Part shown: piece after piece, positions 31,264 to 46,688 of the stretch | Layout of the letters: each line of letters starts with the position of its first letter | How positions within the stretch are numbered: position 1 is the stretch's first letter | Assembly: GCA_964442285.1 (NCBI GenBank) | Contig: CAYTZH010000010.1 | Location: 33,516-97,515, forward strand | Direction: 5' to 3' | From: an uncultured Spirochaetales bacterium | GTDB lineage: Bacteria > Myxococcota_A > UBA9160 > JAFDET01 | Length of the DNA: 64,000 bases | Notes under the pieces: model-generated | Databases searched by the model: none | What the model saw: only the letters and a program-made list of their open reading frames with translations | What the model was told of the DNA's origin: nothing | Made by a program: the position numbers and the translations under genes

Positions 31264-32234
31264 GCGTCGGCAGCGATCCGATCCCGAACATGATGACCGT
31301 CGACGTGGAGGACTGGTTCCACATCCTCGACGCCGACGAGGCGCCGGACCGGGAGGGCTGGGCCGCGCTCGAGTCGCGGGTCGTCGCCAACACCGAGCGC
31401 CTGCTCGCGCTCTTCGCGGCGGCGGAGGTGCGCACCACCTGCTTCATCGTCGGCTGGGTGGCCTGGCGCTGCCCGGAGCTCGTGCGGCGGATCGCCGACG
31501 CCGGCCACGAGGTGGCCTCCCACAGCTTCTGGCACGAGATCCTTCACCGCCACGACCGCGCCTCCCTGGCCCGCGACCTCGAGCGCTCCCGGAAGCTGCT
31601 GCAGGACCTCTCCGGGCAGCCGGTGCGGGGCTTCCGCGCCCCCGGCGCCTCGGTCACGGCGGAGACGGCCTGGGCCTTCGACGTGCTGGTGGAGCAGGGC
31701 TTCGCCTACGACGCCTCGATCTGCCCCGGCGTGTCGAGCCACGGCGGCTTCCGCTCGCCCTTCCCGGGGCCCCACCGGGTGCGCTGCGAGGCCGGCGAGC
31801 TGGTGGAGATCCCGTCCTCCACCGCCGAGCTGGGCGGGCGCCGGATCCCCTACGCCGGCGGCGGCTACCTGCGCCTGTTCCCGTACCTGCTGATCCGGGG
31901 CGCCCTGCGTCGGGACAACCGCGCCGGTCGCCCCGCCAACGTGTACCTGCATCCGCGGGAGATCGATCCGGCGCAGCCGCGCATGGCGCTGCCCGCCAAG
32001 CGCCGCTTCAAGTACTACGTGGGCCTGCGCAGCACCGAGGAGAAGGTGCGGGCGCTGCTGCGCGACTTCCGCTGGACCTCGTGCGCGGACTGGATCGCGC
32101 GCTTCGGGCCGGCCGAGGGGACCGACGTCCTGGACGTGCGCGCGACCGCGGCGGAGCACCCGCCCGCGCCCGATCCGGCGCGCGTACCGCCCGCGCCCCC
32201 GCTCGAGGCCTACGCCGAGAGCGTGGCCTCGTAG
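31260..32234 (+). CDS. XrtA/PEP-CTERM-locus-type polysaccharide deacetylase (CE4/DUF3473-like)
   Basis: Part of ORF 29754..32234. The GTG at 31260 overlaps the ATP-grasp stop (GTGA); alternative ATGs at 31290 and 31293. Motifs MMTVDVEDWFH, VASHSFWHE (H-x-x-x-H) and VRGFRAPGAS. Confidence 0.8.
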   Translation: MSVGSDPIPNMMTVDVEDWFHILDADEAPDREGWAALESRVVANTERLLALFAAAEVRTTCFIVGWVAWRCPELVRRIADAGHEVASHSFWHEILHRHDRASLARDLERSRKLLQDLSGQPVRGFRAPGASVTAETAWAFDVLVEQGFAYDASICPGVSSHGGFRSPFPGPHRVRCEAGELVEIPSSTAELGGRRIPYAGGGYLRLFPYLLIRGALRRDNRAGRPANVYLHPREIDPAQPRMALPAKRRFKYYVGLRSTEEKVRALLRDFRWTSCADWIARFGPAEGTDVLDVRATAAEHPPAPDPARVPPAPPLEAYAESVAS

Positions 32235-34858
32235 ACGCCCGTCACCCCGTCCACCGCCTGCAGGGCCACCTCGCGCACCCGGCGGCGCACGCCGTCGGCG
32301 GCGAGCGCCGCCGGCACGTCGACGCTGGCCCGTCGGTAGGGGAGGGAGGAGCGCAGCCGCAGGGTGTCGCCCGCACGCTCGGCGGTGATGCCGCTCGCCG
32401 CGCCGTCGACGGCGTCCGCCGCCACCACCAGCTCCCAGGCCGCGTCCCGCGCGTCCACCCGGAAGCGCAGCGGGCCGGGCTCCACCGGCGAGCGCCGCGC
32501 CGGCCAGCGCTCGCCGTCGCGCTCGATCCAGGCCTCGCGGACCCGTCCGAAGAGCCAGGCCGGGGGCAGCACCGTCACCTCCCGGGGCTGCTCCGCCGAC
32601 ACCGGGATGTCGCGGCCCACCAGCCGCAGCACGTAGCGATAGGTCTCCTGCCCCGCGTCGGGCGCCGCCAGCTCCACCACCTCCTCGTCGCGCCAGGCCA
32701 GCAGCCGGGGCGTGTAGCGCTCGTACCAGGCGAGCACCGCGTCCCGGGTGCGGGAGAAGCGTACCTCCGGGTGGGCGCGGGCCACGTGGGCCAGGTGGTC
32801 GCGGATCGTGGCCCAGTCGCCGTAGCCCGCCTCGAGGGAGTCCCACTGCCGACCCATGCGCCAGTTAATGAACTTGTCGTGGGTCATGGCGCAGATCACG
32901 TGCACGCCGGGGAGCGCGCCGCCCTCCGGCGTGCGCAGGGCGTCGATCCGACCGTCGACGTAGCCGTTCAGCACGCCCACGTCCGAGAGGAAGTCGGCCT
33001 CGATGTTGAACTCGGCGCGGATCTCCAGGGCCCGCATGCGCTCGGGGCCGGCCGCCGGCTGGCGCGGATCGCCGTCGACCGGGTAGGTGGCCCGGGCCAT
33101 CGGCCGGTGGTAGAGCCGCGGCTTCGGCACGTCGCTGTCCGCCAGCAGCTCGAGCCGCTGGAGCAGGGCGAGGGAGCGCGCGCGCTCGGGGGCGTCCTCG
33201 CCGAAGTCGAAGGAGCCGGCGCGGAAGCAGGTGACCCGGAAGCGCGGGTCGCCCAGGCGCCCGAGGGCCTCGAGCGCGCCGATGCCGCGCCAGGTGGCCC
33301 AGGCGCGGGAGCCCTCCAGCGCGGCGTCGCCCAGGGCGGGGAAGGCGCGGCTCCAGAACCCGCGCTGGGGCAGCGGCGTCTCGAGGAACGCCGCGGGCGT
33401 GGTCACCCGGTCCGACTCGGGATCGAAGCCGTGGCAGAAGACGTCGGTGCCCGGGTCGTGGAAGGCGTGGCAGTGCAGGCCCAGGTCGTTGCCGTTCGCC
33501 ACCGCCTCGATCAGGTGCTCGGCGCTGGCGTCGGCGACCGCCTGCCAGGTGTCGCCGCGGGACTGGCGCGCGGCCCAGGGCACCAGGTGGAGGGAGCCCA
33601 CGTCCACCATGTGGGTCCAGGCCGCGCCCTGCTCGTTGGCCACCTGCTCGGCGAAGCGCGACTTGTCCACCAGGGTCTTGCGCGCCGCCTCGGCGTCGGT
33701 GGCCTCGCGCTCGTCGTAGAGCTCGTGGTCCTCGGTGATCGTGTAGTGGATCTCGCCAGGCTCCCGGTCGGGAACGCCGAACGCCAGCGACAGCCGCTCC
33801 ACCCGGGCTCCCGAGGCCAGCGCCAGCTCCAGGCGCCACGGCCGACCGCCGGCCACGGCGTCGGGCCGGAGAGCGGTCACGCGCACCGTGAGCGACGTGT
33901 TGCCCTCCGCCACCGGAATCCGCCCCCGCGGCTCGCAGAGGAGTCCGTGGCCGCAGGGCTCGAGCACGTGGAGCCCGGCCGCACCCCCGGAGACCTGGAC
34001 CCCGACCTCGATCTCGACGGATTCGCCGACCTCGAGCGCGGCCGGGCGGGTGCCGGAGACCGACAGCCTCAGGTGGGCCACGTGCCCGCTCCCGGACAGG
34101 CGCTCCAGACCGACGATGGCCGCGTCGCACCCGGGGTCGAGGGCCAGGGCGCGGCCCCAGGCCTCCCGGGCGCGCTCCGGCGCCGCGTGCTCGCAGGCGT
34201 CGCCCAGCTCGGACCAGACGGCGACGTCCAGGGGGTCCAGGTCCGCGGCGCGCTCCAGGGCGCCCTCCGCCAGGCTCGCGACGCCGGAGGCCAGGGCGCG
34301 GCGGCCGAGGGCGAGCCAGAGGTCCGCGCGACCGCCGTCGAGCCGGCCGGCCTCGTCGAGCAGGCGCTCCTCCCGCGCGCGGTCGCCGGCCCGGGCCGCC
34401 GCGGCGGCCAGGTGGAGCAGGCCGTCCACCCGGCTGCCCAGGGGCGCGTCCGACTTGCGCAGCGCGGCCTCGGCGTCGCCGAAGCGCCCCTCGGCCAGGA
34501 GCTTCTCGAGGTCCTCGGAGGGGCCGCCGCCCTGGCGACGCGAGCGGCGCCAGGCCAGGGTGGTGCGCAGGGCGCCGAGCACCGAGGTCTCGAGGGTGTT
34601 GTGGGCGAGGTGCTCGAAGGCGTCCCGGTGCCGGGCCGCCGCGCCCGCATCGCCCCGGGCCTCGGCGCGGGCGGCGAGCAGCCGGTGGGCGTCCCGCGCC
34701 CCGGGGTGGATGCGCAAGGCGGCCCAGGCGGCCCCGGGCAGCCAGGACCCCACCCGCACGAGGCCCGCCGCGGTCAGCTCCCGCGCCGCCCGCCGCAGCA
34801 CGAAGGCGTCGTGGGCCGTGACCTGGCGCAGCAGCAGCGCGAGCTCGCGTCGCTTCAC
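32210..34858 (-). CDS. 882-aa multidomain hypothetical protein: N-terminal TPR-like region, middle beta-sandwich-like region, C-terminal divergent deacetylase-like region
   Basis: Part of ORF 32210..35383. The GTG at 34858 overlaps the upstream stop (GTGA). There is no signal peptide or TM segment. TPR-like helices occupy roughly residues 1-300. C-terminal motifs IHYTITEDHELY, LGLHCHAFHD and CFRAGSFDFG parallel TVDVEDWF, SHSFWHE and FRAPGAS of the neighbouring deacetylase. The fold assignment is an inference. Confidence 0.55.
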   Translation of the reverse strand: MKRRELALLLRQVTAHDAFVLRRAARELTAAGLVRVGSWLPGAAWAALRIHPGARDAHRLLAARAEARGDAGAAARHRDAFEHLAHNTLETSVLGALRTTLAWRRSRRQGGGPSEDLEKLLAEGRFGDAEAALRKSDAPLGSRVDGLLHLAAAAARAGDRAREERLLDEAGRLDGGRADLWLALGRRALASGVASLAEGALERAADLDPLDVAVWSELGDACEHAAPERAREAWGRALALDPGCDAAIVGLERLSGSGHVAHLRLSVSGTRPAALEVGESVEIEVGVQVSGGAAGLHVLEPCGHGLLCEPRGRIPVAEGNTSLTVRVTALRPDAVAGGRPWRLELALASGARVERLSLAFGVPDREPGEIHYTITEDHELYDEREATDAEAARKTLVDKSRFAEQVANEQGAAWTHMVDVGSLHLVPWAARQSRGDTWQAVADASAEHLIEAVANGNDLGLHCHAFHDPGTDVFCHGFDPESDRVTTPAAFLETPLPQRGFWSRAFPALGDAALEGSRAWATWRGIGALEALGRLGDPRFRVTCFRAGSFDFGEDAPERARSLALLQRLELLADSDVPKPRLYHRPMARATYPVDGDPRQPAAGPERMRALEIRAEFNIEADFLSDVGVLNGYVDGRIDALRTPEGGALPGVHVICAMTHDKFINWRMGRQWDSLEAGYGDWATIRDHLAHVARAHPEVRFSRTRDAVLAWYERYTPRLLAWRDEEVVELAAPDAGQETYRYVLRLVGRDIPVSAEQPREVTVLPPAWLFGRVREAWIERDGERWPARRSPVEPGPLRFRVDARDAAWELVVAADAVDGAASGITAERAGDTLRLRSSLPYRRASVDVPAALAADGVRRRVREVALQAVDGVTGVYEATLSA

Positions 34859-36258
34859 GCCAGGCGGCCCGTCTCGAGCTGCGACACCACGGCGCGGAAC
34901 TTCCCGTTGGGAAGCCGCGGGATGGCGTCGACCACCTCGTAGGCGATCTCGATCTCGTGACCCAGGCGGCTGCGGAACTCGGCGTCGAGCTCCTTGCGGG
35001 CCGCGTCGTCGAAGCCCGCCCGCGGGACCAGGCGCACCACGATCCGGTCCCGGCTGGACTGCACGATCTGCGCCTCCTTCACCTCGAGGGCGTCCTTGAA
35101 GACGTGGTCCATCCGCCCGATGCGGCGGCCATCGGGGGTCACCACGAAGTCCTCGATGCGCCCGTCGATCCGCTCCAGGAGCGGGCGCGCCCGACCACAG
35201 GGACAGCTCGCCCGCTTGAGCAGCGTGGCCACGTCGCCGGTGCGGTAGCGCAGCAGCGGCATGGCGCGATTGGCGAAGCCGGTGGAGATCACCTCGCCGC
35301 GCACCCAGTCCTCGGTCTCCTCGTGGGGATCGATCTCCACCACGCCGAACTCGGTGTCGACGTGGTAGTGGCCGGCCGGGCACTGCAGCACCGATACGCT
35401 GAACTCGGAGTTGCCGTAGCGGTCGGCCACGACGGCGCCGGTCGCCTGGGCGATCCGATCGCGATGGAAGTCCAGCAGCGTCTCCGACGACGGGAACACG
35501 GCGCGGGGCGCCGCGGCGCCGAGGTCGATCCCGCGGTCGAGCAGGTGCTGGGAGATCAGTCCCAGCGAGGAAGGATAGCCCTGCCAGAAGCGGTAGCCGG
35601 GTCGCTGCAGCTCCCGGGCGTAGGCGTCCAGGAACTCGGCGCGCATGTGGTAGAGCGAGAAGATCATCCGGGAGCGCGCCCGGTCGTAGCGCCAGAACGG
35701 CGGGCGGGCCTGGGTGAAGGGGACCGCCATCTGGCCGCCGAAGGCGGCGAAGCGGTCGCCGAGCTTCACGCCGTACCAGCCCCGCTGGCGCCAGATCACG
35801 CCGTACTCCCAGCCCAGCGCCTCCCGGGTGTGGAAGAGCCGCAGGGCCGTGCCGGTGGTGCCGCTCGAGTGCCCGCCGATGATCTGGCGCTCCGGGATGC
35901 CCTCGCTCTTCAGCGCCTCGGCGTTCTCCCGCACCGTCTCCTTGGGGAGGAAGGGGACCTTGGCCAGATCGTCGCTGCCGCGGATCGAGGCCGGATCGAT
36001 GCCCTCCCGCGTGAACAGGGTGCGGTAGTAGGGCACCGTGCGAGCCGCCCAGAGGATCATCTCCCGCAGCCGCCGGTCCTGGTCCTCGCGGATCTGCTCC
36101 GGGGAGTTGAAGTCGGTCCGCTCGAGCTCGTCGAGGATGCGGCGGAACGGTGCGCCGAAGCGGTGCCGGTAGCTGCGCCAGCCCCAGGCCGCCACCGCCA
36201 GCTCCTGGGCGGCGATGGGAAGCCGGTCGTACAGGCGGTGCATGCGGCTTCGCGCCAT
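34855..36258 (-). CDS. CapK / F390-synthetase / phenylacetate-CoA-ligase-like adenylate-forming enzyme (paralog 2, intact P-loop)
   Basis: ORF 34855..36258. P-loop GGHSSGTTGTAL, motif LLRYRTGDVATL, and C-terminal LPNGKFRAV. Confidence 0.75.
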   Translation of the reverse strand: MARSRMHRLYDRLPIAAQELAVAAWGWRSYRHRFGAPFRRILDELERTDFNSPEQIREDQDRRLREMILWAARTVPYYRTLFTREGIDPASIRGSDDLAKVPFLPKETVRENAEALKSEGIPERQIIGGHSSGTTGTALRLFHTREALGWEYGVIWRQRGWYGVKLGDRFAAFGGQMAVPFTQARPPFWRYDRARSRMIFSLYHMRAEFLDAYARELQRPGYRFWQGYPSSLGLISQHLLDRGIDLGAAAPRAVFPSSETLLDFHRDRIAQATGAVVADRYGNSEFSVSVLQCPAGHYHVDTEFGVVEIDPHEETEDWVRGEVISTGFANRAMPLLRYRTGDVATLLKRASCPCGRARPLLERIDGRIEDFVVTPDGRRIGRMDHVFKDALEVKEAQIVQSSRDRIVVRLVPRAGFDDAARKELDAEFRSRLGHEIEIAYEVVDAIPRLPNGKFRAVVSQLETGRLA

Positions 36259-36262
36259 GGCA

Positions 36263-38410
36263 TCAGACCGCGGAGGGCGCTCCGCTGGCGAGCGAGGCCA
36301 GGGCGGCCAGGCAGGCCCGGGTGGTGGCGGCCGACTGCTCGAAGGGGATCGGCATCGGGCCGCCCTCGCGCACGGCCGCGAGGAAGCGCCGCATCTCCTC
36401 GGCGAAGCCCTTGTCCTGGTTGGCCGAGCGGTCCTTCTGGATGCGACCCCCGCGGACCCGCTCGAGGGTGCGGAAGTCGTCGAGCACCGCCAGCCGCCCT
36501 TCGCCGAAGACCTCGAGCCGCTCCTTCGGGTAGCGGCTGTCGCCGAGCGCCGTGTAGACCACGCTGCCCAGCGAGCCGTCGGCGAAGCGCAGGCTGATCG
36601 CGACGTTGTCGTCGCCGCGATAGCGGTCGTCGCCCGCGATGCTCTCGGCGTGCACGCGGACCGGCGGCGCGCCCGCCAGGAACTGCAGCAGGTCGACGAA
36701 GTGGCAGACCTCGCCGCGGATGCGGCCCCCGCCCTCGGCGGGGTCGTGGATCCAGTGGTCGCCGGGGATGAAGCCCGCGTTGATGCGGTACTGCATCACC
36801 AGGGGATGGGTGCGGTCGGCGAAGTGCTCCGCGAGCTTCGCCACCAGGGGCGCGAAGCGGCGGTTGAAGCCCACCATCACGTCGCCGCGCGCGCCGGCGC
36901 GGGCGGCTTCGATGGCCGCCAGCTCCTCCTCGCACAGGCAGAGGGGCTTCTCGGTGAAGACGTGCTTGCCCGCTTCGAGGCCGCGCCGGACCAGGGGCGC
37001 GTGGAGGTCGTGGCGGGTGAGCACGAACACCGCGTCCACGTCCGGATGCGCCACCACCTCCTCGGTCTCGGCGGTGGCGAGCCGGAAGCCGTGCTGCTCG
37101 CCGATGCGGCGGGCGGTCATGCCGCCGGCGGAGGCGATGGCGACGTTCTCCGTCCCGCCCGCCTCCTGGAGGGCGGGCAGCAGCACCGACTGCCCGAAGC
37201 TCCCGGCGCCCACCAGGCCCACCCGCACGCGGTCCCGCCCCAGGGGCTCGGCGGACAGCGCCACCGACGACGCCGGCGGCCTGGGGGCCTCGTCGTCGGC
37301 GTCGTACTCGAGCACGACCCCCAGGTACGGCTCGCGGCCCCCGGAGATCAGGCCGTAGGCGTCGAGGGCCGCGTCGATCCCGAAGCGGTGCGTGACCAGC
37401 CGCCGCGTGTCCAGACGGCCGTCCGCCGCCAGGTCCAGGAAGGCCTCGAGGTTGCGCTGCTCGGTCCAGCGCACGTGGCCCAGGGGGTAGTCGACGCCGC
37501 GCTCCTCGTAGTCCGGGTCGTAGCGTCCGGGGCCGTAGGACATGGACATCCGCAGGTCGAGCTCCTTGCGGTAGTAGGTCGAGCGGGGGACCTGCATCCC
37601 CACCAGGCCGACCACCACCACCCGGCCGCGCAGGCGGGAGATCTCGCCGGCGACCTCCAGCGGCCCGGCGTCCGGCGTCGACGCGGCCACGATCACCGCG
37701 TCCATGCCCTGGCCCAGGGAGAACTGCGCGGCGGCGGTCTCGAGGTCGTCGGAGACGGCGCGGTGGGCCCCGAGCTCCTCGGCCAGCTTGGCCCGCTCGC
37801 CGTTCGGATCGAAGCCCAGCACCCGGCAGCCGCCCGCCCGCAGCAGCTGCACCGTGAGCTGTCCGATGAGCCCCAGGCCGATCACCGCCACCCGCTCGCC
37901 CAGGGTGGGCTCGGCCTGCCGGACTCCTTGGAGCGCGATGGCGCCCACGGTGGCGAACGCGGCGCTCTCCATGTCCACGCCGTCGGGAATCCGCACGACC
38001 AGGTTGCGCGGGACGTAGTTGTAGTCGGCGTGGTTGGCGTAGCCGGCGCCGGCACAGGCGACGCGGTCGCCCACCTGCAGCTCGGAGACCTCCTCGCCCA
38101 CGCCGACCACGATCCCGGCGCTCGAGTAGCCCAGGGGGATCGGCGTCTCGAGCTTGGTGCGCACCTTCTGGAGCGTGTTCATCACGCCCTGCTTGCGGGC
38201 CGTGGTGATCACCTTGCGCACCAGGTCCGGGCGGGCCCGGGCCTTGGCCACCAGGCTCTTGCGGGCCAGGTCCACCACCATCTTCTCGGTGCCGGCCGAC
38301 ACCAGGGAACGCACCGTGCGCACGAGCACGCCCTGGGGCCGCAGCGCGGGCGGCGGGACGTCCTCCACCTTCATCTCGCCGGTCCGGTACGACTGGATCA
38401 GCTGGCGCAT
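36263..38410 (-). CDS. Bi-domain oxidoreductase: N-terminal zinc-type alcohol dehydrogenase (MDR) fused to a C-terminal Gfo/Idh/MocA domain
   Basis: Internal ATG at 38410 of ORF 36263..38866. The MDR part has GYSSAGIVVGVGEEVSELQVGDRVA and VAVIGLGLIGQL. The Gfo/Idh/MocA part has VRVGLVGAGSFGQSVLLPAL and GKHVFTEKPLC. Confidence 0.8.
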   Translation of the reverse strand: MRQLIQSYRTGEMKVEDVPPPALRPQGVLVRTVRSLVSAGTEKMVVDLARKSLVAKARARPDLVRKVITTARKQGVMNTLQKVRTKLETPIPLGYSSAGIVVGVGEEVSELQVGDRVACAGAGYANHADYNYVPRNLVVRIPDGVDMESAAFATVGAIALQGVRQAEPTLGERVAVIGLGLIGQLTVQLLRAGGCRVLGFDPNGERAKLAEELGAHRAVSDDLETAAAQFSLGQGMDAVIVAASTPDAGPLEVAGEISRLRGRVVVVGLVGMQVPRSTYYRKELDLRMSMSYGPGRYDPDYEERGVDYPLGHVRWTEQRNLEAFLDLAADGRLDTRRLVTHRFGIDAALDAYGLISGGREPYLGVVLEYDADDEAPRPPASSVALSAEPLGRDRVRVGLVGAGSFGQSVLLPALQEAGGTENVAIASAGGMTARRIGEQHGFRLATAETEEVVAHPDVDAVFVLTRHDLHAPLVRRGLEAGKHVFTEKPLCLCEEELAAIEAARAGARGDVMVGFNRRFAPLVAKLAEHFADRTHPLVMQYRINAGFIPGDHWIHDPAEGGGRIRGEVCHFVDLLQFLAGAPPVRVHAESIAGDDRYRGDDNVAISLRFADGSLGSVVYTALGDSRYPKERLEVFGEGRLAVLDDFRTLERVRGGRIQKDRSANQDKGFAEEMRRFLAAVREGGPMPIPFEQSAATTRACLAALASLASGAPSAV

Positions 38411-39888
38411 GCCCGGGCTTCCGGCTCCCGCTCGATGTGACCCTTCCAGCCGGGGTGGGCCTCGAAGTGGAGGTTCAGGTCGATGTCGGAGAAGCGCATC
38501 CGGCGCTCTCCCGCCTCGTCGATCCAACACACCTCGAGGCTCTCGGGCTCGCCCCGGAAGGCGGTGATCCGCAGGCCGCCGGCGAGCTCCTCCAGGGCCC
38601 GGCGCAGCAGCGGGATCCGCCGCCACTCGAAGCCCATGATCCAGGTGAGCACCACGTCGACGCAGCCCCCGTCCTCGCCCGCGGCCAGCAGGCCCAGGGG
38701 GCGCGGGTCCGGCCCCATGGGCCCCTGGCCCTCGCCGGCCACGATGCCGTCGTAGACGTTGAGCACGCGGCGGGTGGACGCCTGCCCGAGGCGGCCCTCC
38801 TTGTCGGCGTGATAGAAGACCTTGTTGAGATCCAGGCAGGTGCGCCAGATGGTGTCGTTGCCCCACCAGTTGCCGGAGCGGGTCCGCTGGCCCAGGCCGC
38901 TGGCCTCCTCGGCGGCCCGGATCCGGCGGAACACCGCGCCCCCGATGCCGCGCTTGAGCAGCCGGCGGGCGAACTCGCCGCCGAAGGCGCGGAGCCGGGC
39001 GTAGGCGTCCGGCCGGGGGAACTCGTCGCCGCCCCCGGACTGGAAGCCTGCCCGGTAGTGGGGCAGCCAGTTCTTGTCGCCATTGATGCCGATGAGGTTC
39101 TTCATCGACAGGGTCACGCCAGCCTTCTTGTGGGTCTTGATCTTGGGCACGTTGATGGCCAGGTCGGCCGACAGCACCGTGCGCGCCACCAGGTACTCGT
39201 TCACGCCCCGGCTGTGGTGCTGGATCGTGACCTCCTCGTCGTAGTCGGCGCCCCGCAGCAGCCGCAGGTGCCGCTCGGACATGCTCTGGAACTCACTGGC
39301 AGTCCCGAGGTCGGCGGCCACGTAGCCCTTGGGATCGCCCGGCAGCTTGCGCTTCTCCGTCTGCACGCCGTGGGTGTGGCGGCCGAACTCGACCCGCAGG
39401 TCCCGGAAGGGCACCTCGAGGCCGATCTCCGTGTACCAGCCCAGGAACTCCGCGAGGCGGAGCTTCTCGAGCAGCACCTCGATCTCGCAGTCGTACTGGG
39501 GCGCGTCGGCGACCACCACCGAGCCGCCGGGGCCGACGGCCTTCCAGGCGTAGTCGATCAGCGGCCGCAGCACGGCGGGATGCGTGACCACCGCCTCGAC
39601 GGAATCGCCGTGGGTCTCGTTGAAGTGGCGCACGAAGTTCGGCTTCAGCACCACGCTCCCACCGGGCGTCACCAGGTCCGAGAGGGGCGACCAGTCGGGC
39701 GTGCCGAAGCGCGCGGCGTCGTAGCCCAGGCCCCGGAGCATCCGGCGGACCCCCGCGTAGATGCGGTTGCGGGGCTCGGTGTCCCCGGGCAGGAAGCCCA
39801 GCTCCGGATAGCGCTCCGGCGGGTGGTAGGGCAGGGGAAGGTCGTAGTCCTTCTGGCCCGTGAAGTGGATGACCGGCAGCGGCAGCAT
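38398..39888 (-). CDS. DUF362 domain protein
   Basis: ORF 38398..39888, with a perfect SD AAGGAGG before the ATG. Motifs SVVLKPNFV, INVPKIKTHKKAGVTLSMKNLIG and YDGIVAGEGQGP are typical of DUF362. Confidence 0.7.
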   Translation of the reverse strand: MLPLPVIHFTGQKDYDLPLPYHPPERYPELGFLPGDTEPRNRIYAGVRRMLRGLGYDAARFGTPDWSPLSDLVTPGGSVVLKPNFVRHFNETHGDSVEAVVTHPAVLRPLIDYAWKAVGPGGSVVVADAPQYDCEIEVLLEKLRLAEFLGWYTEIGLEVPFRDLRVEFGRHTHGVQTEKRKLPGDPKGYVAADLGTASEFQSMSERHLRLLRGADYDEEVTIQHHSRGVNEYLVARTVLSADLAINVPKIKTHKKAGVTLSMKNLIGINGDKNWLPHYRAGFQSGGGDEFPRPDAYARLRAFGGEFARRLLKRGIGGAVFRRIRAAEEASGLGQRTRSGNWWGNDTIWRTCLDLNKVFYHADKEGRLGQASTRRVLNVYDGIVAGEGQGPMGPDPRPLGLLAAGEDGGCVDVVLTWIMGFEWRRIPLLRRALEELAGGLRITAFRGEPESLEVCWIDEAGERRMRFSDIDLNLHFEAHPGWKGHIEREPEARACAS

Positions 39889-39902: not shown

Positions 39903-40565
39903 CTATTCCGGCACGAACGCGGACAGCCGCGCCACGACCCGCGGCGCGAACTCCTCGAAGGCGCGGTCCGCGGCCGCCTCGCCCCCGCTTCCCAGCGGGA
40001 TCGTGAACCGCACGAGGGCGCCGTCGGTCCTCCCCCGGGTCGCGCGATCCCAGAACAGGTCCACGATCTTGCGCCAGTCCTCGGCGATCACGCGGCCGCG
40101 GGAATGGTACCAGTAGTAGACCGCCTGCCGCGCGGGCCCCTTGGCGATCACGAAGCGCTTGATCCGCGCCGGTCGCTCGGGCATCCCCGGCATGTCGACC
40201 TCGAGCTGGCGGGCCCCCACGATGTCCCAGCCCGAGCCCGGCAGGCAGTGCTTCGGCGGATGGATGGCGTTCTCGCCGGCCCCGCCGCCCTCCCGGCGGA
40301 CCTGGGTGGCGTGGTAGCCGACGTAGAGATTCACCAGGGCGCGCGGCTCGTTGCGCACGAAGTTGCAGAGCAGGTAGTCGGTCACGCCGAGGTTGCGGAC
40401 CACCGGCGCCTCCAGCGCCTCGCGGCCCGCGCAGCGCCAGGCCCCCAGGGCGTCCGGGAAGGCCTCGAAGCGCTGGCGCTCCGGCACCACCTCCCCGGTG
40501 GCGAGGCCGTGGTAGACGTAGAGGTTCAGGCCCAGGAAGGCCGCGGCCACCAGGTAGCGGGTCAC
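39903..40565 (-). CDS. epsI: EpsI-family exosortase-associated protein
   Basis: ORF 39903..40610. I prefer the GTG at 40565, which overlaps the xrtA stop (GTGA) and gives MTRYLVAAAFLGLNLYVY; the ATG at 40610 is the alternative. The signature AIHPPKHCLPGSGW matches EpsI (H-x-P-x-x-C-L-P-G-x-G-W). Confidence 0.85.
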   Translation of the reverse strand: MTRYLVAAAFLGLNLYVYHGLATGEVVPERQRFEAFPDALGAWRCAGREALEAPVVRNLGVTDYLLCNFVRNEPRALVNLYVGYHATQVRREGGGAGENAIHPPKHCLPGSGWDIVGARQLEVDMPGMPERPARIKRFVIAKGPARQAVYYWYHSRGRVIAEDWRKIVDLFWDRATRGRTDGALVRFTIPLGSGGEAAADRAFEEFAPRVVARLSAFVPE

Positions 40566-41473
40566 GGCCGGGCCTCCGCGGGGCGCCCCGGGCCGCCCGG
40601 GCGTGGCCACAGGCGCGCCAGCAGTGCGGCCTCGGCCAGGAGCAGGGCGAAGGCCAGCCCGAAGGTGAACAGCCCCTCGGTCTCGTGGATGGCGCCCTCC
40701 GCCATCTCCTGGCCGAAGCGGTGGGTCAGGATCCCCGTCAGCGCCACCCGCAGGGCATTGACCAGGATCGCGATCGGGAGCGTGGAGAGCACGATGACGC
40801 CGCGCTCCAGCCAGGACTTCCGGAAGAAGTAGGCGAACACGACGCCCAGGGTGAGCAGCGCCATGAGCGAGCGGAGACCGCTGCAGGCGTCCTGGACGAA
40901 GAGCGTGACCTCGGCGAGGTGGATGATGTTGCCCTCGCGCAGGGCGGGGATGCCCAGCTCGTGGAGCAGCCGCACCGCCATGTCGGCGGCGAACAGCTGC
41001 AGCGGGAACGAGACGACGTTCACCAGGGACTGGGGCAGCGGGATCATCAGGAACAGGAAGAGCAGCGGGAAGGCCAGGACCCGGTAGGCGTCCCGGCCGA
41101 GGAGCAGCAGCACCAGGCCGTTGCAGGTGAGCACGAACCCCGTCCGCATGCTCATCTGCTCGACGCCCAGCCGGCCGACGGCCAGGGCCAGGACCCCCGC
41201 GGCCAGCACCGGCACGCCCCAGACGCTGGCCCGGAACGCGGTCCGCGCCAGGTCGTGGCGCCGCTCCCAGGCGAAGTAGAGCGCCAGGGGCGCCACCACG
41301 AAGCCGTGGGAGTAGCTGTCGTCGGTGGACCAGTGGCGCGCCATGTGACGGAGCACGGGTGCGTACACCGCCGTGGCCCCGACGAGGGCGACGGCGGTGG
41401 CGGCGAGCGCCGTTCGCGGAGACGCGCCCGGGCGGGCCGGGGGCCCGCCCGGGCTGTACGACTCCGTCGTCAA
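40562..41473 (-). CDS. xrtA: Exosortase (XrtA/EpsH type)
   Basis: ORF 40562..41473, TTG start. Motifs DDSYSHGF, LMIPLP, QDACSGLRS (catalytic Cys), VNALRVA (Arg) and AIHETEG (His). It is followed directly by epsI, and prsT lies in the same locus. Confidence 0.85.
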   Translation of the reverse strand: MTTESYSPGGPPARPGASPRTALAATAVALVGATAVYAPVLRHMARHWSTDDSYSHGFVVAPLALYFAWERRHDLARTAFRASVWGVPVLAAGVLALAVGRLGVEQMSMRTGFVLTCNGLVLLLLGRDAYRVLAFPLLFLFLMIPLPQSLVNVVSFPLQLFAADMAVRLLHELGIPALREGNIIHLAEVTLFVQDACSGLRSLMALLTLGVVFAYFFRKSWLERGVIVLSTLPIAILVNALRVALTGILTHRFGQEMAEGAIHETEGLFTFGLAFALLLAEAALLARLWPRPGGPGRPAEARP

Positions 41474-41492
41474 TGCCCCGGGTCCCGCCCCG

Positions 41493-41668
41493 CTAGAAGA
41501 GGGCGTAGATGAACGGCGCGACTGCAGAGCCCTCGGTCAGGACGATGAGCACCGAGAGCAGCAGCATCACCACCACGATCGGGCCGAGCCACCACTTCTT
41601 GCGGACCTTCATGAAGGTCCAGAGCTCGCCGAAGATCCCCAGCCGGCTTCCACCCGCCTTCGCCATGT
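41493..41668 (-). CDS. SxtK/DUF5989-like small membrane protein; N-terminus out of frame (G6 run) or expressed as a 39-aa form by ATGA-coupled reinitiation
   Basis: Below the ORF-track size cutoff. The frame ending at TAG 41495..41493 reads (G)IFGELWTFMKVRKKWWLGPIVVVMLLLSVLIVLTEGSAVAPFIYALF. The only in-frame ATG is at 41612 (39 aa). A well-placed ATG at 41668 (RBS GGAGAG) is in another frame and stops after 19 codons at TGA 41611..41609. A C6 run (G6 on the coding strand) lies at 41637..41642. Confidence 0.55.
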
Positions 41669-41676
41669 CTCTCTCC

Positions 41677-43416
41677 TCAGTCGAGCTCGTAGAGCTCTCG
41701 CCAGTCCACGTCTTCGCGCAGCTCCGGCTGGTCGCGCTTCCGCAGCACCTGGTTGCCCAGCACCAGCACGTCCATCTCGGTGCGCATGAAGCAGAGATAG
41801 GCGTCCCGGGGCGTGCACACGATCGGCTCGCCGCGGACGTTGAACGAGGTGTTGATCAGCACCGGGCAGCCCGTGCGCTGGTCGAAGGCCTGGAGCAGGT
41901 CGTAGAACTCGGCGTGGCTCTCCCGGGTGACCGTCTGCAGGCGGGCCGAGCCGTCCACGTGGGTCACGGCCGGCACCTCGCGGCCCTCGCGCACCTGGCA
42001 GACCAGCAGCATGTAGGGGCTCTCGCGGTCGATGTCGAACCACTCCCCCGCCTTCTCCGCCAGACAGGCGGGCGCGAAGGGCCGGAAGCTCTCGCGGTAC
42101 TTGATCTTGAGGTTGACCCGCTTCCAGTTCTCCTCGTCCCGGGCGTCGGCCAGGATGCTGCGGCTGCCCAGGGAGCGCGGACCCCACTCCATGCGTCCCT
42201 GGAACCAGCCCACGACGGCCCGCTCCTCGTCGATGAGGCGGGCCGTCTCCCGGATCATCTCGTCCCGGGGCAGCGTCTGGTAGACCGCCCCCGCGCCGTC
42301 GAGGAAGCTGCGGATGGCGTCGTCGTCGAAGGCGGGGCCCCAGTAGGCGTGATCCATGCGGCAGCGGCGCGGGTTACCCAGCACGCAGTTGTCGATGAAC
42401 AGGGCCACGCCGAGGGCGCTGCCCGCGTCGCCCGCGGCCGGCTGGATCCAGAGCTCCTCGAAGGGCCCCTCGCGGATGATCCGGCCGTTGGCGACGCAGT
42501 TGAGGGCCACGCCGCCCGCCATGCAGAGGTTCTTCATGCCGGTGCGGGCGTGGAGGTCCCGCACCATGCGCAGCACCACCTCCTCGGTGACCGCCTGCAC
42601 GCTGGCCGCCATGTCCCAGTGGAACTGCTCCATGGGCGACTCGGGCTCGCGCCGGGGCTGCCCGAAGAGCTCGGCGAAGCGCTTGTTGGTCATGGTCAGG
42701 CCGTAGTCGTAGGCGAAGTACTTCATGTCGAGCTTGAAGGAGCCGTCCTCGCGGATGTCGATCAGCTCCTTCTTGATCAGGTCGGCGTACTTCGGCGTGC
42801 CGTAGGGCGCGGCGCCCATGACCTTGTACTCGGCGCTGTTGACCTTGAAGCCCAGGTAGTAGGTGAAGGCGCTGTAGAGCAGACCCAGGCTGTGGGGGAA
42901 GCGGATCTCGTGCAGCAGCTCGAGCTGGTTGCCGCGACCGACGCCGAAGGTCGCCGTCGCCCACTCGCCCACGCCGTCGAGGGTGAGCACGGCCGCCTCC
43001 TCGAAGGGGGAGGGGAGGAAGGCCGCGGCGGCGTGACTCTGGTGGTGCTCCGCGAAGAGCACCTCGCCCGTGTAGCCGAGCTTGCTGGCGATCTGGTTCG
43101 GGACCCAGAGCTTCTCCTTCAGCCAGATCGGGATGGCCTTGGTGAACGACGGCAGGGAGCGCGGGAAGGTGGCGATGTACGTGGTGAGCATGCGCTCGAA
43201 CTTCACGAACGGCTTGTCGTAGAAGGCCACGTAGTCGACGTCGTCGATGTCGAGGCCGGCCTCCGCCAGGCAGTAGCGGGTGGCCTCCACCGGCAGCTCC
43301 GGGTCGTGGCGCCTGCGGGTGAAGCGCTCCTCGTGGGCCGCGGCGACCAGCTCGCCGTCGCGCAGCAGGGCGGCGGCGGCGTCGTGGTAGAAGCAGGAGA
43401 TGCCGAGGATGTTCAC
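41677..43416 (-). CDS. Carbamoyltransferase (NodU/CmcH/SxtI-like), paralog 3
   Basis: ORF 41677..43416, GTG start with RBS GGAGA. Sequence MNILGISCFYHDAAAALLRDGELVAAAHEERFTRRRHD, then HHQSHAAAAFLPSPF and TLDGVGEW, plus INTSFNVRGEPIVCTPRDA. Confidence 0.9.
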   Translation of the reverse strand: MNILGISCFYHDAAAALLRDGELVAAAHEERFTRRRHDPELPVEATRYCLAEAGLDIDDVDYVAFYDKPFVKFERMLTTYIATFPRSLPSFTKAIPIWLKEKLWVPNQIASKLGYTGEVLFAEHHQSHAAAAFLPSPFEEAAVLTLDGVGEWATATFGVGRGNQLELLHEIRFPHSLGLLYSAFTYYLGFKVNSAEYKVMGAAPYGTPKYADLIKKELIDIREDGSFKLDMKYFAYDYGLTMTNKRFAELFGQPRREPESPMEQFHWDMAASVQAVTEEVVLRMVRDLHARTGMKNLCMAGGVALNCVANGRIIREGPFEELWIQPAAGDAGSALGVALFIDNCVLGNPRRCRMDHAYWGPAFDDDAIRSFLDGAGAVYQTLPRDEMIRETARLIDEERAVVGWFQGRMEWGPRSLGSRSILADARDEENWKRVNLKIKYRESFRPFAPACLAEKAGEWFDIDRESPYMLLVCQVREGREVPAVTHVDGSARLQTVTRESHAEFYDLLQAFDQRTGCPVLINTSFNVRGEPIVCTPRDAYLCFMRTEMDVLVLGNQVLRKRDQPELREDVDWRELYELD

Positions 43417-43465
43417 GTGGGGGTCTCCGTTCGCGGCGCCGGACGTCCGGACGCGCGGGCCGTTC

Positions 43466-43744
43466 TCAGGACTGCGTCTTCGCGCGCTCCAGCTCGGCGG
43501 GCGCCGCCTCCGCCTCGTTCCAGGCCGTATCCGGCTCGCGCAGGCCGCGCTTGGCGAGCAGGTCCTGCCGGCCGATGTTGACGATCGTGGCCGCGATCCC
43601 GATCGCGGAGGCGTAGAAGAGCGACAGGATCACCTGGGTCTGCACCTCGCCGAAGTGGGCGACGATGCGCATCCAGCCGTGTCCGAAGGGCCGCAGCGGT
43701 GCGAGCACACGCCGCCAGCCGACTGTCTCCACGGCCGCGCTCAT
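43466..43744 (-). CDS. 92-aa membrane protein, SxtJ-like (C-terminal-half resemblance)
   Basis: C-terminal part of shadow ORF 43466..44980. The ATG at 43744 overlaps the wecB stop (ATGA). The sequence MSAAVETVGWRRVLAPLRPFGHGWMRIVAHFGEVQTQVILSLFYASAIGIAATIVNIGRQDLLAKRG resembles the conserved W..lg..n..iiL.l.y..v..P......r..g.D.L region I recall for SxtJ-family proteins. Confidence 0.5.
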   Translation of the reverse strand: MSAAVETVGWRRVLAPLRPFGHGWMRIVAHFGEVQTQVILSLFYASAIGIAATIVNIGRQDLLAKRGLREPDTAWNEAEAAPAELERAKTQS

Positions 43745-44886
43745 GAGGCCTCCCGCCCGCCGGTCCCCGGCTCCGGGGGCCCGCACAGGTCCCGTTGTAG
43801 CACGTCCACGATCCGGGCCGCGGCGCGTCCGTCCCAGCGTTCCGGGACGCGACCGGCCTTCGACTCGCCGTCGAGGATCTTGGTGACCTCGCTGCGGATG
43901 GTGGCCGGGTCGCGACCCACCAGCGTATTCGTTCCCTCGCTGAGCGTCACCGGCCGCTCCGTGTTCTCGCGCAGGGTGAGGCAGGGAACGCCGAGCACCG
44001 TGGTCTCCTCCTGGACGCCGCCGGAATCCGTGAGCACCAGCTTTGCATCGGCCATCAGCCGCAGGAAATCGAGGTATCCCAGGGGCTCGGTGGTGCGAAG
44101 CCGGGGCTCGCGCCCGCCGAGCAGGCGCGCGATGGCCGCACGGGTCCGCGGATGGACCGGGAACACCAGGGGAATCTCGCCGTGGATCTCCTCCAGCACG
44201 CCGAACAGCGCCCGCAGGTGGGTGGGGTCGTCCACGTTGGCCGGCCGGTGCAGGGTGAGCAGGCCGTAGCCCCCGGGGGTCAGGCCCAGCCGTCCCAGGG
44301 TGTCCCGCTCCCGGGCCCGCGCGAGATGGGCGCGCAGGGTGTCGATCATGACGTTGCCGGCGAAGTGGATCCGCTCGGGGGCCACGCCCTCCCGGAGCAG
44401 GTTCTGCTCGGCCGCGGGCTCCGTGGTGAAGCACCAGTCGGAGATGGCATCGGTGAGCACCCGGTTGATCTCTTCGGGCATGGTCCGGTCGAAGGAGCGC
44501 AGTCCGGCCTCCACGTGGGCCACCGGGATCCCGAGCTTGACGGCGGCGAGCGCGGAGGCCAGGGAGCTGTTGACGTCGCCCACCACCACCACGACATCCG
44601 CCGGGGACTCCTGGAGCAGGACCTCCATCTGGCGCAGGACCTCGGCCGTCTGGGCCCCGTGGGGACCCGAGCCGACGCCGAGATTGCGGTCCGGCTCCGG
44701 GATCCCGAGGTCCTGGAAGAAGTCCTCCGACATGGCGCGGTCGTAGTGCTGACCGGTGTGGACGAGGGTCACGCCGAAGGCGTCCCGGGCCCGGAGCTCG
44801 CGCAGGAGCGGGGCGATCTTCATGAAGTTCGGTCTCGCGCCCGCGACGGCGAGGATCCTCGGACGGGGCCGGTGCTCGAGGGCCAT
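43741..44886 (-). CDS. wecB: UDP-N-acetylglucosamine 2-epimerase (non-hydrolysing)
   Basis: Internal ATG at 44886 of ORF 43741..45006, with RBS GGAGA. Motifs ILAVAGARPNFMKIAPL, HTGQHYD, VVVVGDVNSSLA, VAHVEAGLRSFD and TDSGGVQEE. Confidence 0.9.
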   Translation of the reverse strand: MALEHRPRPRILAVAGARPNFMKIAPLLRELRARDAFGVTLVHTGQHYDRAMSEDFFQDLGIPEPDRNLGVGSGPHGAQTAEVLRQMEVLLQESPADVVVVVGDVNSSLASALAAVKLGIPVAHVEAGLRSFDRTMPEEINRVLTDAISDWCFTTEPAAEQNLLREGVAPERIHFAGNVMIDTLRAHLARARERDTLGRLGLTPGGYGLLTLHRPANVDDPTHLRALFGVLEEIHGEIPLVFPVHPRTRAAIARLLGGREPRLRTTEPLGYLDFLRLMADAKLVLTDSGGVQEETTVLGVPCLTLRENTERPVTLSEGTNTLVGRDPATIRSEVTKILDGESKAGRVPERWDGRAAARIVDVLQRDLCGPPEPGTGGREAS

Positions 44887-44957
44887 GATCTCCTGCTCTT
44901 CTCCCCGCTTCTCCCCGCGGGTGGTGGGTTGCGGGCGGTGCCTCGGGCTTCGTGAAA

Positions 44958-44975
44958 TTTGCGAGAAGCGTGCCA
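44958..44975 (-). promoter_or_regulatory. Sigma54 (-24/-12) promoter for the wecB ... xrtA-epsI operon
   Basis: The minus strand reads TGGCACGCTTCTCGCAAA. GG and GC are in the exact -24/-12 register of the consensus TGGCAC-N5-TTGCA, with one -12 mismatch. The -12 GC lies about 75 nt upstream of the wecB ATG. Two sigma54-activator genes are in the window. Confidence 0.65.
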
Positions 44976-45188
44976 GGCACCTCGCCGAGGCGCTCGGAGC
45001 CGGCACCTCAAAGCCCTAAAGTATTGCGTTCGTCTCGCGAAAGGGAATGGGGCTGCCTCTGTGTGCCGCAGGACGGAAAATCCGTTCCCACGTGCCGAAC
45101 CAGTTCCCACAAGTGGAAGGGGTTTACATATGGGCCGAAGCCCGCAAACTCCGTTCGGCCGTGTGGGCCCTCGAGGGGAGGCCGCTGA

Positions 45189-45206
45189 CGGCACGGCGAT
45201 CGCAAA
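45189..45206 (+). promoter_or_regulatory. Sigma54 (-24/-12) promoter for the response-regulator/export operon
   Basis: The plus strand reads CGGCACGGCGATCGCAAA. It has the same GGCACG-N4-TCGCAAA architecture as the divergent promoter. The -12 GC lies about 60 nt upstream of the ATG at 45264. Confidence 0.6.
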
Positions 45207-45263
45207 GCCTCCCGCGACCGGAACGTAGGGAAGCAGCCTCGTCCGCGGAGGAATGACGCCGGA

Positions 45264-46688
45264 ATGTCCGAGCCTTTTCGCGTTCTCGTGATCGACGACG
45301 ATCCCGGGGTCCGCGACTACCTGGAGGCCCTGGTGACGCGCCAGGGCTACGAGGTCTTTGCCGCCGCGGGTGGTGAGGAGGCGCTGCAGTCCCTCGAGCA
45401 GAGCCGGCCCGACCTGGTGACCCTCGACGTGGTGCTGCCCGGCATGGATGGTCTCGAGACACTCCGCCAGCTCAAGCAGAAGCTGGCCGACGTGCCGGTC
45501 ATCATGCTCTCGGGCCACGGCCAGGCCCGCACCATCGTCGAGGCCATGAAGCTCGGCGCCTCGGACTTCCTGCGCAAGCCGTTCGAGGTGGAGGAGCTCG
45601 AGCTGGCCTTCCAGAAGGCGCTCGAGAAGCGCGCCCTGAAGCAGGAGGTGGAGGACCTCCGGCGCCGCTCCCGGGGCGAGTCGGAGCGCATGATCCTCTT
45701 CGGGGACAACGAGAAGATGCGCGGGGTGCGCGAGATCATCGAGCAGGTCGCCGACACCGACATCACCGTCCTGATCCGGGGCCCGAGCGGCACCGGCAAG
45801 GAGGTGGTGGCCCGCAGCATCTTCGAGCTGTCGAGCCGTCGCGACCGTCCCTTCGTCAAGGTCAACTGCGCCGCGCTCCCCTCGGAGCTCCTGGAGAGCG
45901 AGCTCTTCGGCTTCGAGAAGGGGGCCTTCACGGGCGCCCAGAAGCGCAAGCTCGGCAAGTTCGAGTACGCGAACCACGGCACCATCTTCCTGGACGAGAT
46001 CAGCGAGATGCACCCCAACCTCCAGGCCAAGCTCCTGCAGGTGCTCCAGGACGGGGAGTTCTCGCGCCTCGGCGGGGAGAGCGACATCCGCGTCGACACC
46101 CGGGTGCTGGCCGCCACCAACCGCAACCTGGAGGAGGCGGTGCGCGACGGGTCGTTCCGCGAGGACCTCTTCTACCGCCTCAACGTGGTCGCCATCCAGA
46201 TCCCGCCGCTGCAGGATCGGCGCGACAGCATCCCGCTGCTGGTGGACCACTTCCTGCGCAAGTACAACGAGCAGTACAAGAAGGAGGTGAAGCAGCTCTC
46301 CTCCGAGACCCTGGCCGTATTCATGCAGTACGGCTGGCCCGGCAACGTCCGGGAGCTCGAGAACATGGTGAAGCGCATGGTGGTGCTCGGGAACGAGGAC
46401 ACCGTGCTGGAGGACATCCGCCTCCAGGCTGCGCGGGCCGAGACCGCCGACGCGGAGGCCGACGACCCCCTGGACCTGACCGAGCTCGACGCCGACCTGG
46501 CCGACGGCAAGGGCATCGACCTCAAGTCGATCGCCAAGCGGGCGGCCCAGCTGGCGGAGAAGCGGGTGATCGAGAAGGTGCTCGCCCAGACCCGGTGGAA
46601 CCGCAAGGAGGCCGCCGAGCGTCTGCAGATCAGCTACAAGGCGCTGCTCTACAAGATGAAGGAGAACGGGCTCAGCGAGGGCCGCTGA
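45264..46688 (+). CDS. Sigma54-dependent response regulator (NtrC family: REC + AAA+ + Fis-type HTH), orphan copy heading the export operon
   Basis: ORF 45264..46688. REC domain VLVIDDD and DLVTLDVVLPGMDG. Walker A GPSGTGKE, the sigma54-contact loop GAFTGA, and the C-terminal HTH NRKEAAERLQISYKALLYKMKENGL. Confidence 0.9.
   Translation: MSEPFRVLVIDDDPGVRDYLEALVTRQGYEVFAAAGGEEALQSLEQSRPDLVTLDVVLPGMDGLETLRQLKQKLADVPVIMLSGHGQARTIVEAMKLGASDFLRKPFEVEELELAFQKALEKRALKQEVEDLRRRSRGESERMILFGDNEKMRGVREIIEQVADTDITVLIRGPSGTGKEVVARSIFELSSRRDRPFVKVNCAALPSELLESELFGFEKGAFTGAQKRKLGKFEYANHGTIFLDEISEMHPNLQAKLLQVLQDGEFSRLGGESDIRVDTRVLAATNRNLEEAVRDGSFREDLFYRLNVVAIQIPPLQDRRDSIPLLVDHFLRKYNEQYKKEVKQLSSETLAVFMQYGWPGNVRELENMVKRMVVLGNEDTVLEDIRLQAARAETADAEADDPLDLTELDADLADGKGIDLKSIAKRAAQLAEKRVIEKVLAQTRWNRKEAAERLQISYKALLYKMKENGLSEGR

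Follow-up and report, generated by a model that had tools for sequence, protein, structure and literature searches.

On the minus strand of contig CAYTZH010000010.1 from an uncultured Spirochaetales bacterium (assembly GCA_964442285.1; Myxococcota_A in GTDB), a trio of genes related to those of the saxitoxin (sxt) cluster stands directly ahead of an exosortase gene in a locus for exopolysaccharide (EPS) synthesis. The trio encodes a short homologue of SxtJ (J'), an O-carbamoyltransferase of the SxtI type (CT1), and a DUF5989/SxtK protein (K), and it is followed by xrtA and epsI. The analysed stretch of 64 kb (the window, from whose first letter all positions are counted) has a G+C content of ~71% and therefore contains long spurious open reading frames (ORFs) in every frame; genes were checked by family scans, codon-position composition, and conservation. 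From 44886 to 32210 the minus-strand order is wecB, J', CT1, K, xrtA, epsI, and then the genes for a DUF362 protein, an oxidoreductase, a CapK-like ligase, and a protein of 882 amino acids (aa), with every junction at or below 49 nt. The first six genes all lie on the minus strand at the positions claimed in the initial annotation of this DNA, and the five junctions between them measure -4, 49, 10, 19, and -4 nt, negative values being overlaps. The overlaps and the gaps of 49 and 19 nt had been given correctly, whereas the gap between CT1 and K is 10 nt and not 8.

The string begins with wecB (43741..44886, minus strand), which encodes a non-hydrolysing UDP-GlcNAc 2-epimerase (TIGR00236, 332.3 bits against a cut-off of 210.15; PF02350, E 4.6e-108) and whose stop codon overlaps the start of J' in ATGA. 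CT1 has a GTG start with a GGAG ribosome-binding site, and the TTG start of xrtA aligns with the ATG of its relatives. The two small ORFs of the trio have the codon signature of real genes, with a third-position G+C content of 0.94 for J' and 0.93 for K against 0.98 for CT1. Both were called independently by a composition-only gene caller, and the ratio of non-synonymous to synonymous substitution rates (dN/dS) is below 1 for each. An Rfam scan of the window gave no match.

CT1 (41677..43416, minus strand; 579 aa) is a genuine O-carbamoyltransferase of the TobZ/GdmN/SxtI type; the initial annotation had called it a carbamoyltransferase. It contains both domains of the family, Carbam_trans_N (335 bits) and Carbam_trans_C (243 bits), and among solved structures it matches GdmN (7vyj) with 345 bits, TobZ with 289-292 bits, and also NovN, which share its two-domain architecture. 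The alignment with GdmN retains HHxxH (H124/H128), LDGxGE (D147), GDAG (D330), GPRSLGSRS, FRPFAP, and NTSFN, among them the metal-binding and carbamoyl-adenylate motifs; the metal-binding, carbamoyl-adenylate, and catalytic roles of these motifs are presumably those given in the literature on TobZ and GdmN. In NCBIfam, only general carbamoyltransferase models matched, and they scored under their cut-offs. One feature sets CT1 apart from GdmN, which aligns only to residue 566 and leaves unaligned a conserved C-terminal tail, ...DWRELYELD in CT1, that is common to nearly all carbamoyltransferases associated with J and K. TobZ, GdmN, and NovN act on soluble antibiotics, and to our knowledge they have not been described as needing partners of the SxtJ or SxtK type.

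K (41493..41666, minus strand) is a 57-aa single-pass membrane protein that lies 10 nt downstream of CT1 and ends in APFIYALF. Its assignment to the DUF5989/SxtK family was confirmed by PF19451 (87.8 bits against a cut-off of 27, E 4.8e-25, profile positions 2-49 of 49); no NCBIfam model matched it. Hundreds of environmental sequences encode a K with 77-96% identity, and its dN/dS is ~0-0.08. Its adjacency to a carbamoyltransferase holds except in five related loci in which the carbamoyltransferase gene has been deleted.

The second small protein is harder to place. J' (43466..43744, minus strand), a 92-aa membrane protein with one helix, lies 49 nt upstream of CT1, as expected for a SxtJ adjacent to its SxtI. 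Direct Pfam and NCBIfam scans of J' gave no match even at E<=10, nor did scans of a 124-aa upstream extension, so that the description of J' as SxtJ-like rests on profile-level evidence. J' falls short of the gathering threshold of PF19588 (24.4 bits), and its orthologues in two related loci (L007 and L006) reach 23.9 and 19.6 bits, aligning with profile positions 51-98 only. When J' was compared with 12 canonical SxtJ proteins in hhalign, profile columns 7-83 matched columns 68-144, 77 in all, with a probability of 97.9% and an E of 4.4e-13, and residues 9-92 of J' correspond to the last 77 columns of SxtJ. A local hidden Markov model built from the same 12 proteins matched J' at E 2e-9. In other phyla, the ORF between the carbamoyltransferase and DUF5989 genes is a PF19588 SxtJ with 37-51 bits. 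The initial claim that the 92-aa ORF is SxtJ-like thus did not hold at the level of direct family placement and held at that of profile homology to the C-terminal half of SxtJ.

Canonical SxtJ proteins have 131-161 aa, and the full-length architecture of ~130-160 aa with two extra N-terminal hydrophobic segments is not found in the 92 residues of J'. The AlphaFold model of J' shows one helix at residues 5-57 (pLDDT, the predicted local distance difference test score, 81.6), and Foldseek returned nothing for this model against the PDB. A word-seeded protein search with J' gave only 3 matches, and an exhaustive profile search was needed to find its relatives; it gave 328 representative clusters at E<1e-3, most of those listed being 65-110 aa long, and 37 of 53 aligned relatives, some short forms included, match PF19588 at E<=0.01. 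J' is under purifying selection, with a dN/dS of 0.24-0.63 on saturated dS. From its sequence, then, J' is a remote, N-terminally truncated SxtJ homologue, a one-helix mini-SxtJ, one of a large family of short proteins equivalent to the C-terminal half of SxtJ that Pfam often misses. Apparent fusions joining J or K to other domains (P0040, P0086, P0118, P0119, P0126, P0034, and P0158) were rejected as frameshifted read-throughs, false positives, or clustering artefacts.

The extreme C-termini of all three proteins are conserved across phyla, in the window and in L004-L083: ...DW+xEFELD in the carbamoyltransferase, ...APFIYTLF in K, and ...YEKQF or ...LERAxxQ(F/S/T) in J. These tails may be docking motifs.

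A second carbamoyltransferase module lies on the plus strand at 24089..27256 and consists of a GDSL/SGNH hydrolase gene (24089-25090), CT2 (25087-26922), and a 115-aa acidic ORF (26909-27256). The hydrolase gene overlaps the start of CT2 by 4 nt, and a gene for a glycosyltransferase of family GT1 (22968-24092) leads the group. CT2 has 611 aa and is 53% identical to CT1 and 57-62% identical to J/K-associated carbamoyltransferases of other phyla. Across the window, no second J or K that could serve CT2 was found, K being present in a single copy, and K could therefore serve more than one carbamoyltransferase. No homologue of the 115-aa ORF was found in the fetched loci. The end of this ORF, SPFVYVMY, resembles that of K, possibly by coincidence.

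The two genes behind K encode an exosortase and its associated protein. XrtA (40562..41473, minus strand; PF09721, 254 bits) passes TIGR03109 marginally, with 215.4 bits against a cut-off of 208, and EpsI (39903..40610, minus strand, with a likely start at 40565; PF11984, 156.7 bits) passes TIGR02914 with 96.3 bits against 42.8. On partial length, the XrtD and XrtW models outscore TIGR03109 for XrtA, far under their own cut-offs. The N-terminal half of the XrtD (VPLPA-CTERM) model gives 231.9 bits with XrtA and its C-terminal half 166 bits with EpsI, and the sum of 398 compares with a cut-off of 400; XrtA and EpsI together look like a split XrtD-like exosortase.

Around these genes the window encodes the parts of an EPS locus: a WecA-like initiating transferase, a GDP-mannose dehydratase, an NDP-sugar dehydrogenase, an export protein, a chain-length determinant, a tyrosine kinase, pepcterm ATPase-like genes, glycosyltransferases, a Wzy-like protein, and an XrtA-system polysaccharide deacetylase (TIGR03006, 298 against a cut-off of 276). 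The locus resembles the XrtA/PEP-CTERM exopolysaccharide loci, the system of Haft et al. 2006. Judged with the families of that system (TIGR03109, TIGR02914, TIGR03006, TIGR03007, TIGR03015, TIGR03018, TIGR02915, and TIGR03027), xrtA, epsI, and the deacetylase gene pass the cut-offs, and the export, chain-length, ATPase, tyrosine kinase, and regulator genes have system models among their best matches. Because most of the accessory models score under their cut-offs, the locus represents a divergent branch. It differs from the known loci in that XrtA and EpsI each find their best match in one half of the fused XrtD model, and in that the window contains no gene for a PEP-CTERM substrate: PEP-CTERM-like C-termini were sought in all called genes of the window and none was found.

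The operon is transcribed divergently from a gene for a sigma54-dependent response regulator (45288..46688, plus strand), an arrangement seen in every related locus. By its scores this regulator is PrsR-like, although TIGR02915, the model for the PEP-CTERM-box response regulator, gives 401 bits under a cut-off of 502.6 and the AtoC/NtrC models score similarly or slightly higher. In the intergenic region, a sigma54-type -24/-12 element, TGGCACGCTTCTCGCA (44960..44975, minus strand), lies 74 nt upstream of the wecB ATG and agrees with the consensus at 11 of 12 positions. Nothing else in the 64 kb matches TGGCAC-N5-TYGCW, for which chance alone predicts 0.07 occurrences. Among 15 related intergenic regions, an element with at least 9 of 12 positions is found in three (10/12 in L008, 9/12 in L004 and L112), and the rest have 8 or fewer. 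The sigma54-type promoter claimed for the operon corresponds to a unique candidate site in this DNA, with comparable elements in only some relatives. A TTCC-N6-GGGAA dyad (45104..45118, minus strand) lies in the same region. Dyads of the form TTCC-N5-7-GGAA occur in 16 of 16 homologous intergenic regions between prsR and the operon (L001-L008, L088, L092, L094, L099, L100, L106, L112, and L115), at ~100-180 nt from the regulator start and often in at least two copies, and the window contains 2 matches compared with 0.22 expected. The sigma54 activator may bind at this dyad. Neither sigma70-like promoters nor minus-strand terminator-like sites were found when looked for in 34000-45400. Given the compact junctions, one sigma54-like site, and the lack of internal promoter-like and terminator-like sites, the simplest reading is one transcript controlled by a sigma54 activator.

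We then compared the gene neighbourhoods from three sides. In a census of 80 species-level genome loci with carbamoyltransferases 52-80% identical to CT1, J lies within 3 kb of the carbamoyltransferase gene in 77 and K in ~58, indicating that the three form a general module and bearing out the earlier statement that homologues of J and K accompany O-carbamoyltransferases in other bacteria. The commonest order is CT-J-K (38/80). An exosortase gene lies within 3 kb in only two of the 80, L004 and L006, which are the complete loci of the clade with 78-80% identity; their metagenome-assembled genomes (MAGs) are labelled Spirochaetales and Myxococcota, and those of the truncated relatives L005 and L008 Deltaproteobacteria and Myxococcota. 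An exosortase gene is found on three JGI contigs (L001-L003) as well. In ~70 other species of many phyla, the trio occurs with no exosortase gene nearby, and its neighbours there are genes for GDSL hydrolases, sugar-nucleotide enzymes, methyltransferases, and glycosyltransferases including GT1.

The picture from the exosortase side is different. Of 57 metagenome loci, 32 have an XrtA of at least 60% identity together with upstream sequence, and K lies directly upstream of xrtA in 31 of these, at gaps of 10-220 nt; a carbamoyltransferase gene precedes K in 25 of these. At 61-68% XrtA identity, dozens of loci repeat the order of trio and xrtA, and the compact gene string that the initial annotation described is found again in many metagenomic and MAG loci. 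XrtA relatives at 39-49% identity have neither K nor a carbamoyltransferase gene. Five loci (L089, L094, L097, L102, and L111) have the order wecB-K-xrtA, with J' and the carbamoyltransferase gene deleted. The scars of these deletions, in which the first codons of J' are fused to the last codons of the carbamoyltransferase gene, can be read between wecB and K in L102:690-880 and L111:410-560. L102 groups with L098, which contains the carbamoyltransferase, both in its flanking sequence and at synonymous sites, and this implies at least two independent deletions of J'-CT. K is intact in all five loci; its five copies show 62 synonymous and 4 non-synonymous codon differences, and it evolves there with a dN/dS of ~0-0.05. 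In L109, xrtA-epsI has been kept and only a decayed 3' remnant of K, GPAVTPFIHTLC* (at 1-200), stands before xrtA.

In the census from the side of K, a word search gave 2164 matches, and the contexts of the longest contigs were examined. The closest relatives of the window (L144-L149; CT 80-84% and PrsR 82-84% identical) are among them. In L144, L145, and L146 the order is prsR<>wecB-J'-CT-K-oxidoreductase, in L147 a 69-aa ORF comes after K, together with genes for a glycosyltransferase of family GT4 and an acetyltransferase, and in L148 and L149 the order is CT-K-GDSL. In none of the six is xrtA-epsI present near the trio within the stretch read, which was 10 kb on each side for L144, 10 kb upstream and ~3 kb downstream of K for L145, ~6 kb for L146-L148, and for L149 the entire contig of 4.7 kb. 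The arrangement prsR<>[wecB]-J'-CT-K with xrtA-epsI is seen in L001-L004, L006, L088..L119, L150, and L151; L150, L151, and a 46.5-kb JGI contig have prsR<>J'-CT-K-xrtA-epsI-capK-DUF362. wecB is absent from this position in L004, L006, L088, and L150, and lies downstream of epsI in L112.

Together these censuses show that the conserved unit is the trio, J'-CT-K with wecB optional, heading an EPS operon of the PrsR type, in which xrtA-epsI is a variable passenger. Since the trio occurs without xrtA-epsI in the closest relatives, and xrtA-epsI occurs without the carbamoyltransferase or K elsewhere, the trio behaves as a decoration cassette and not as a component of the sorting machinery. A strict tie of K to xrtA was rejected, as K-side loci lack xrtA-epsI and L109 has xrtA with a decayed K. 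The initial annotation had regarded the trio as an integral part of an exosortase operon: the trio is in the operon, but it is not integral to it, with modular gain and loss in every direction. The neighbourhood conservation on which that view depended is strong when seen from the xrtA subfamily, and the adjacency is dispensable when seen from the trio. Functional coupling to XrtA sorting, as had been predicted, finds no support in view of the J'-CT deletions, L109, the closest relatives without xrtA-epsI, and the presence of an exosortase gene near only 2 of the 80 carbamoyltransferase loci.

How, then, might the trio act? We favour membrane-associated O-carbamoylation of the EPS and give this reading as a whole a probability of about 0.6. 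CT1 would be a cytoplasmic enzyme of the SxtI/TobZ type that uses carbamoyl phosphate and ATP, with the small membrane proteins J' and K as its partners. The bacteria of the clade are Myxococcota-like and high in G+C, and in them the module takes the first positions of a large EPS operon, an XrtA/PEP-CTERM-type locus transcribed divergently from a sigma54 activator of the PrsR type. Carbamoyl groups would be added to an EPS sugar, probably on the lipid-linked repeat unit at the cytoplasmic face of the inner membrane, and J' and K would hold the soluble CT1 at that membrane, the trio being an optional decoration cassette. Co-transcription of xrtA-epsI behind K would then reflect a shared regulon and not a sorting role of the trio. 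XrtA/PEP-CTERM EPS loci carry many EPS-modifying enzymes. Family membership and genomic context make carbamoylation of an EPS sugar, with J' and K holding the enzyme at the membrane, the most likely function. The analysis shows what the genes are, their homology, their compact and conserved arrangement, the modular gains and losses, and the selection acting on the two small ORFs; we infer the sugar substrate, the tethering, the single transcript, and the control by sigma54 and PrsR.

Several points weigh against this reading. Throughout this clade, carbamoylation of the EPS is so far a prediction. Tethering by J' and K is conjecture, the model of J' being a single helix without an informative fold match. 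SxtJ and SxtK are uncharacterised in the literature to 2026, which goes no further than to call them "hypothesised to work in conjunction" with SxtI. Most relatives do not show a clear counterpart of the sigma54 element. Finally, K is kept under strong purifying selection where J'-CT has been lost, which a pure helper of CT1 would not predict. This retention could plausibly be explained if another carbamoyltransferase, such as the CT2 paralogue, uses K.

The retention of K is also an argument for coupling of the trio, or at least of K, to exosortase sorting, either with K as a partner of XrtA-EpsI or with the carbamoyltransferase acting on the glycans of PEP-CTERM substrates. K stands directly before xrtA in 31 of 32 loci at gaps of 10-220 nt, and K-xrtA-epsI has stayed intact, with K strongly selected, after at least two independent deletions of J'-CT. 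We nevertheless consider such coupling unlikely, because the closest relatives carry wecB-J'-CT-K followed by other EPS genes, with no xrtA-epsI in the stretch read, L109 retains xrtA-epsI with a decayed K only, K partners a carbamoyltransferase across phyla with no exosortase near, XrtA relatives at 39-49% identity lack K and the carbamoyltransferase, and no protein of the PEP-CTERM type is encoded in the window; CT2, which has no J or K of its own, could account for the retention of K. On the same two observations, the position of K before xrtA and its purifying selection after the deletions, K could be an independently selected membrane factor of ~50 aa that works here with XrtA-EpsI, as a third subunit or by coupling EPS modification or export to the exosortase; we regard this narrower proposal as quite improbable.

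Another explanation that we hold to be unlikely is that the carbamoyltransferase acts on an acceptor other than a polysaccharide, for example a small secreted metabolite, a lipid, or a cytosolic nucleotide-sugar precursor, and is merely housed in the EPS locus. GdmN, NovN, and TobZ, its characterised close structural relatives, all act on small molecules, the precedent for SxtI/J/K is a toxin pathway, and with wecB directly before the module a soluble precursor derived from UDP-ManNAc is conceivable. However, among the genes scanned in the window we saw no polyketide synthase, nonribosomal peptide synthetase, or other secondary-metabolite genes, and found genes for EPS assembly, export, and regulation instead; the presence of two membrane partners speaks for an acceptor bound to the membrane, and many relatives have the trio without wecB at this position. 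J'-CT, wecB, and xrtA-epsI are gained and lost like cassettes, which shows that the pieces can work apart, and the K-xrtA gap is 130-220 nt in some relatives. Both observations would suit separate transcription units that share no regulation and are neighbours by chance in a crowded locus. In the window, however, the gaps are 10 and 19 nt and are flanked by start/stop overlaps, the minus strand gave no site resembling a promoter or terminator, and dozens of loci at 61-68% XrtA identity have the same order, so that this is very improbable.

In both the sxt cluster and the window, a Carbam_trans_N/C enzyme with a GPRxLGxRS motif, a protein of the SxtJ family, and a DUF5989 protein are encoded side by side. 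The order is J-CT-K in the window and I-J-K in sxt; J' has 92 aa and one helix and lies under Pfam detection, whereas SxtJ has 134 aa (405 nt); and the window context is an EPS/exosortase operon with a sigma54 activator and presumably a glycan acceptor, in contrast to a toxin cluster. A further likeness is a GDSL hydrolase, SxtL in the sxt cluster, as a recurrent fourth neighbour of the module. GDSL/SGNH genes lie near CT/J/K in L148:6215-7276, in L149:1056-2117, and in the window at 24089-25090 and 19938-21131, and make up 10 of the 134 ORFs that neighbour the module in 29 other loci, which suggests a four-gene I-J-K-L unit. With the CT-SxtJ-DUF5989 module of many phyla, the window shares a carbamoyltransferase 52-62% identical to CT1 with the ...DW..EFELD tail, a K that is 45-76% identical, and a homologous J. 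That module differs in its full-length J (131-161 aa, PF19588 37-51 bits), in its order, mostly CT-J-K (38/80), and in having no exosortase gene within 3 kb outside the clade of the window (L004 and L006).

The neighbourhood of a carbamoyltransferase with SxtJ and SxtK is already known from the sxt cluster. What is new is that the trio leads an operon containing xrtA in a clade widespread in the environment, together with the mini-SxtJ form, the J-CT-K order, and the natural deletion series. No literature that mentions DUF5989, or that ties exosortases to O-carbamoyltransferases or to the trio, was found in a search whose coverage mostly did not extend to subscription journals. Within that coverage, this agrees with the initial annotation, which knew of no description of the trio as part of an exosortase operon, and the annotation was also right that the functions of SxtJ and SxtK are unassigned. 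The clade provides an unusually clear natural experiment, with the full trio, K only where recent deletions have left scars, a decayed K, and xrtA-epsI present or absent, and the mini-SxtJ family delimits the smallest conserved part of SxtJ. Should the EPS prove to be O-carbamoylated, this would be a new decoration for polysaccharides of the XrtA/PEP-CTERM type and a genetically tractable read-out for the roles of J and K. For exosortase biology the outcome is mainly negative, the trio being a passenger or decoration module and not a core sorting component. The main value of the locus is as an entry point to the long-standing question of what SxtJ and SxtK do, posed since the description of the saxitoxin cluster.

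Downstream of epsI, the string continues on the minus strand with four genes, three of them assigned by family scan: a DUF362 protein (39888..38398), a two-domain ADH_zinc/GFO_IDH_MocA oxidoreductase (38410..36263), a CapK-like ligase (36258..34855), and the 882-aa protein (34858..32210), which has no family match. Their junctions, starting from epsI, are 14, -13, 4, and -4 nt, and the same genes also lie behind epsI in L001, L092, L099, and L150. Elsewhere in the window, a LarA-like nickel-pincer racemase homologue, an ATP-grasp ("carbamoyl-phosphate-synthase-like") protein, and the XrtA-system deacetylase are encoded together at 28501-32234, and this group recurs in L144 and L146. Further regulators are encoded on the plus strand at 58137-61499, namely a Crp-type regulator with a cyclic-nucleotide (cNMP)-binding domain, a PAS histidine kinase, and a second sigma54-dependent response regulator.

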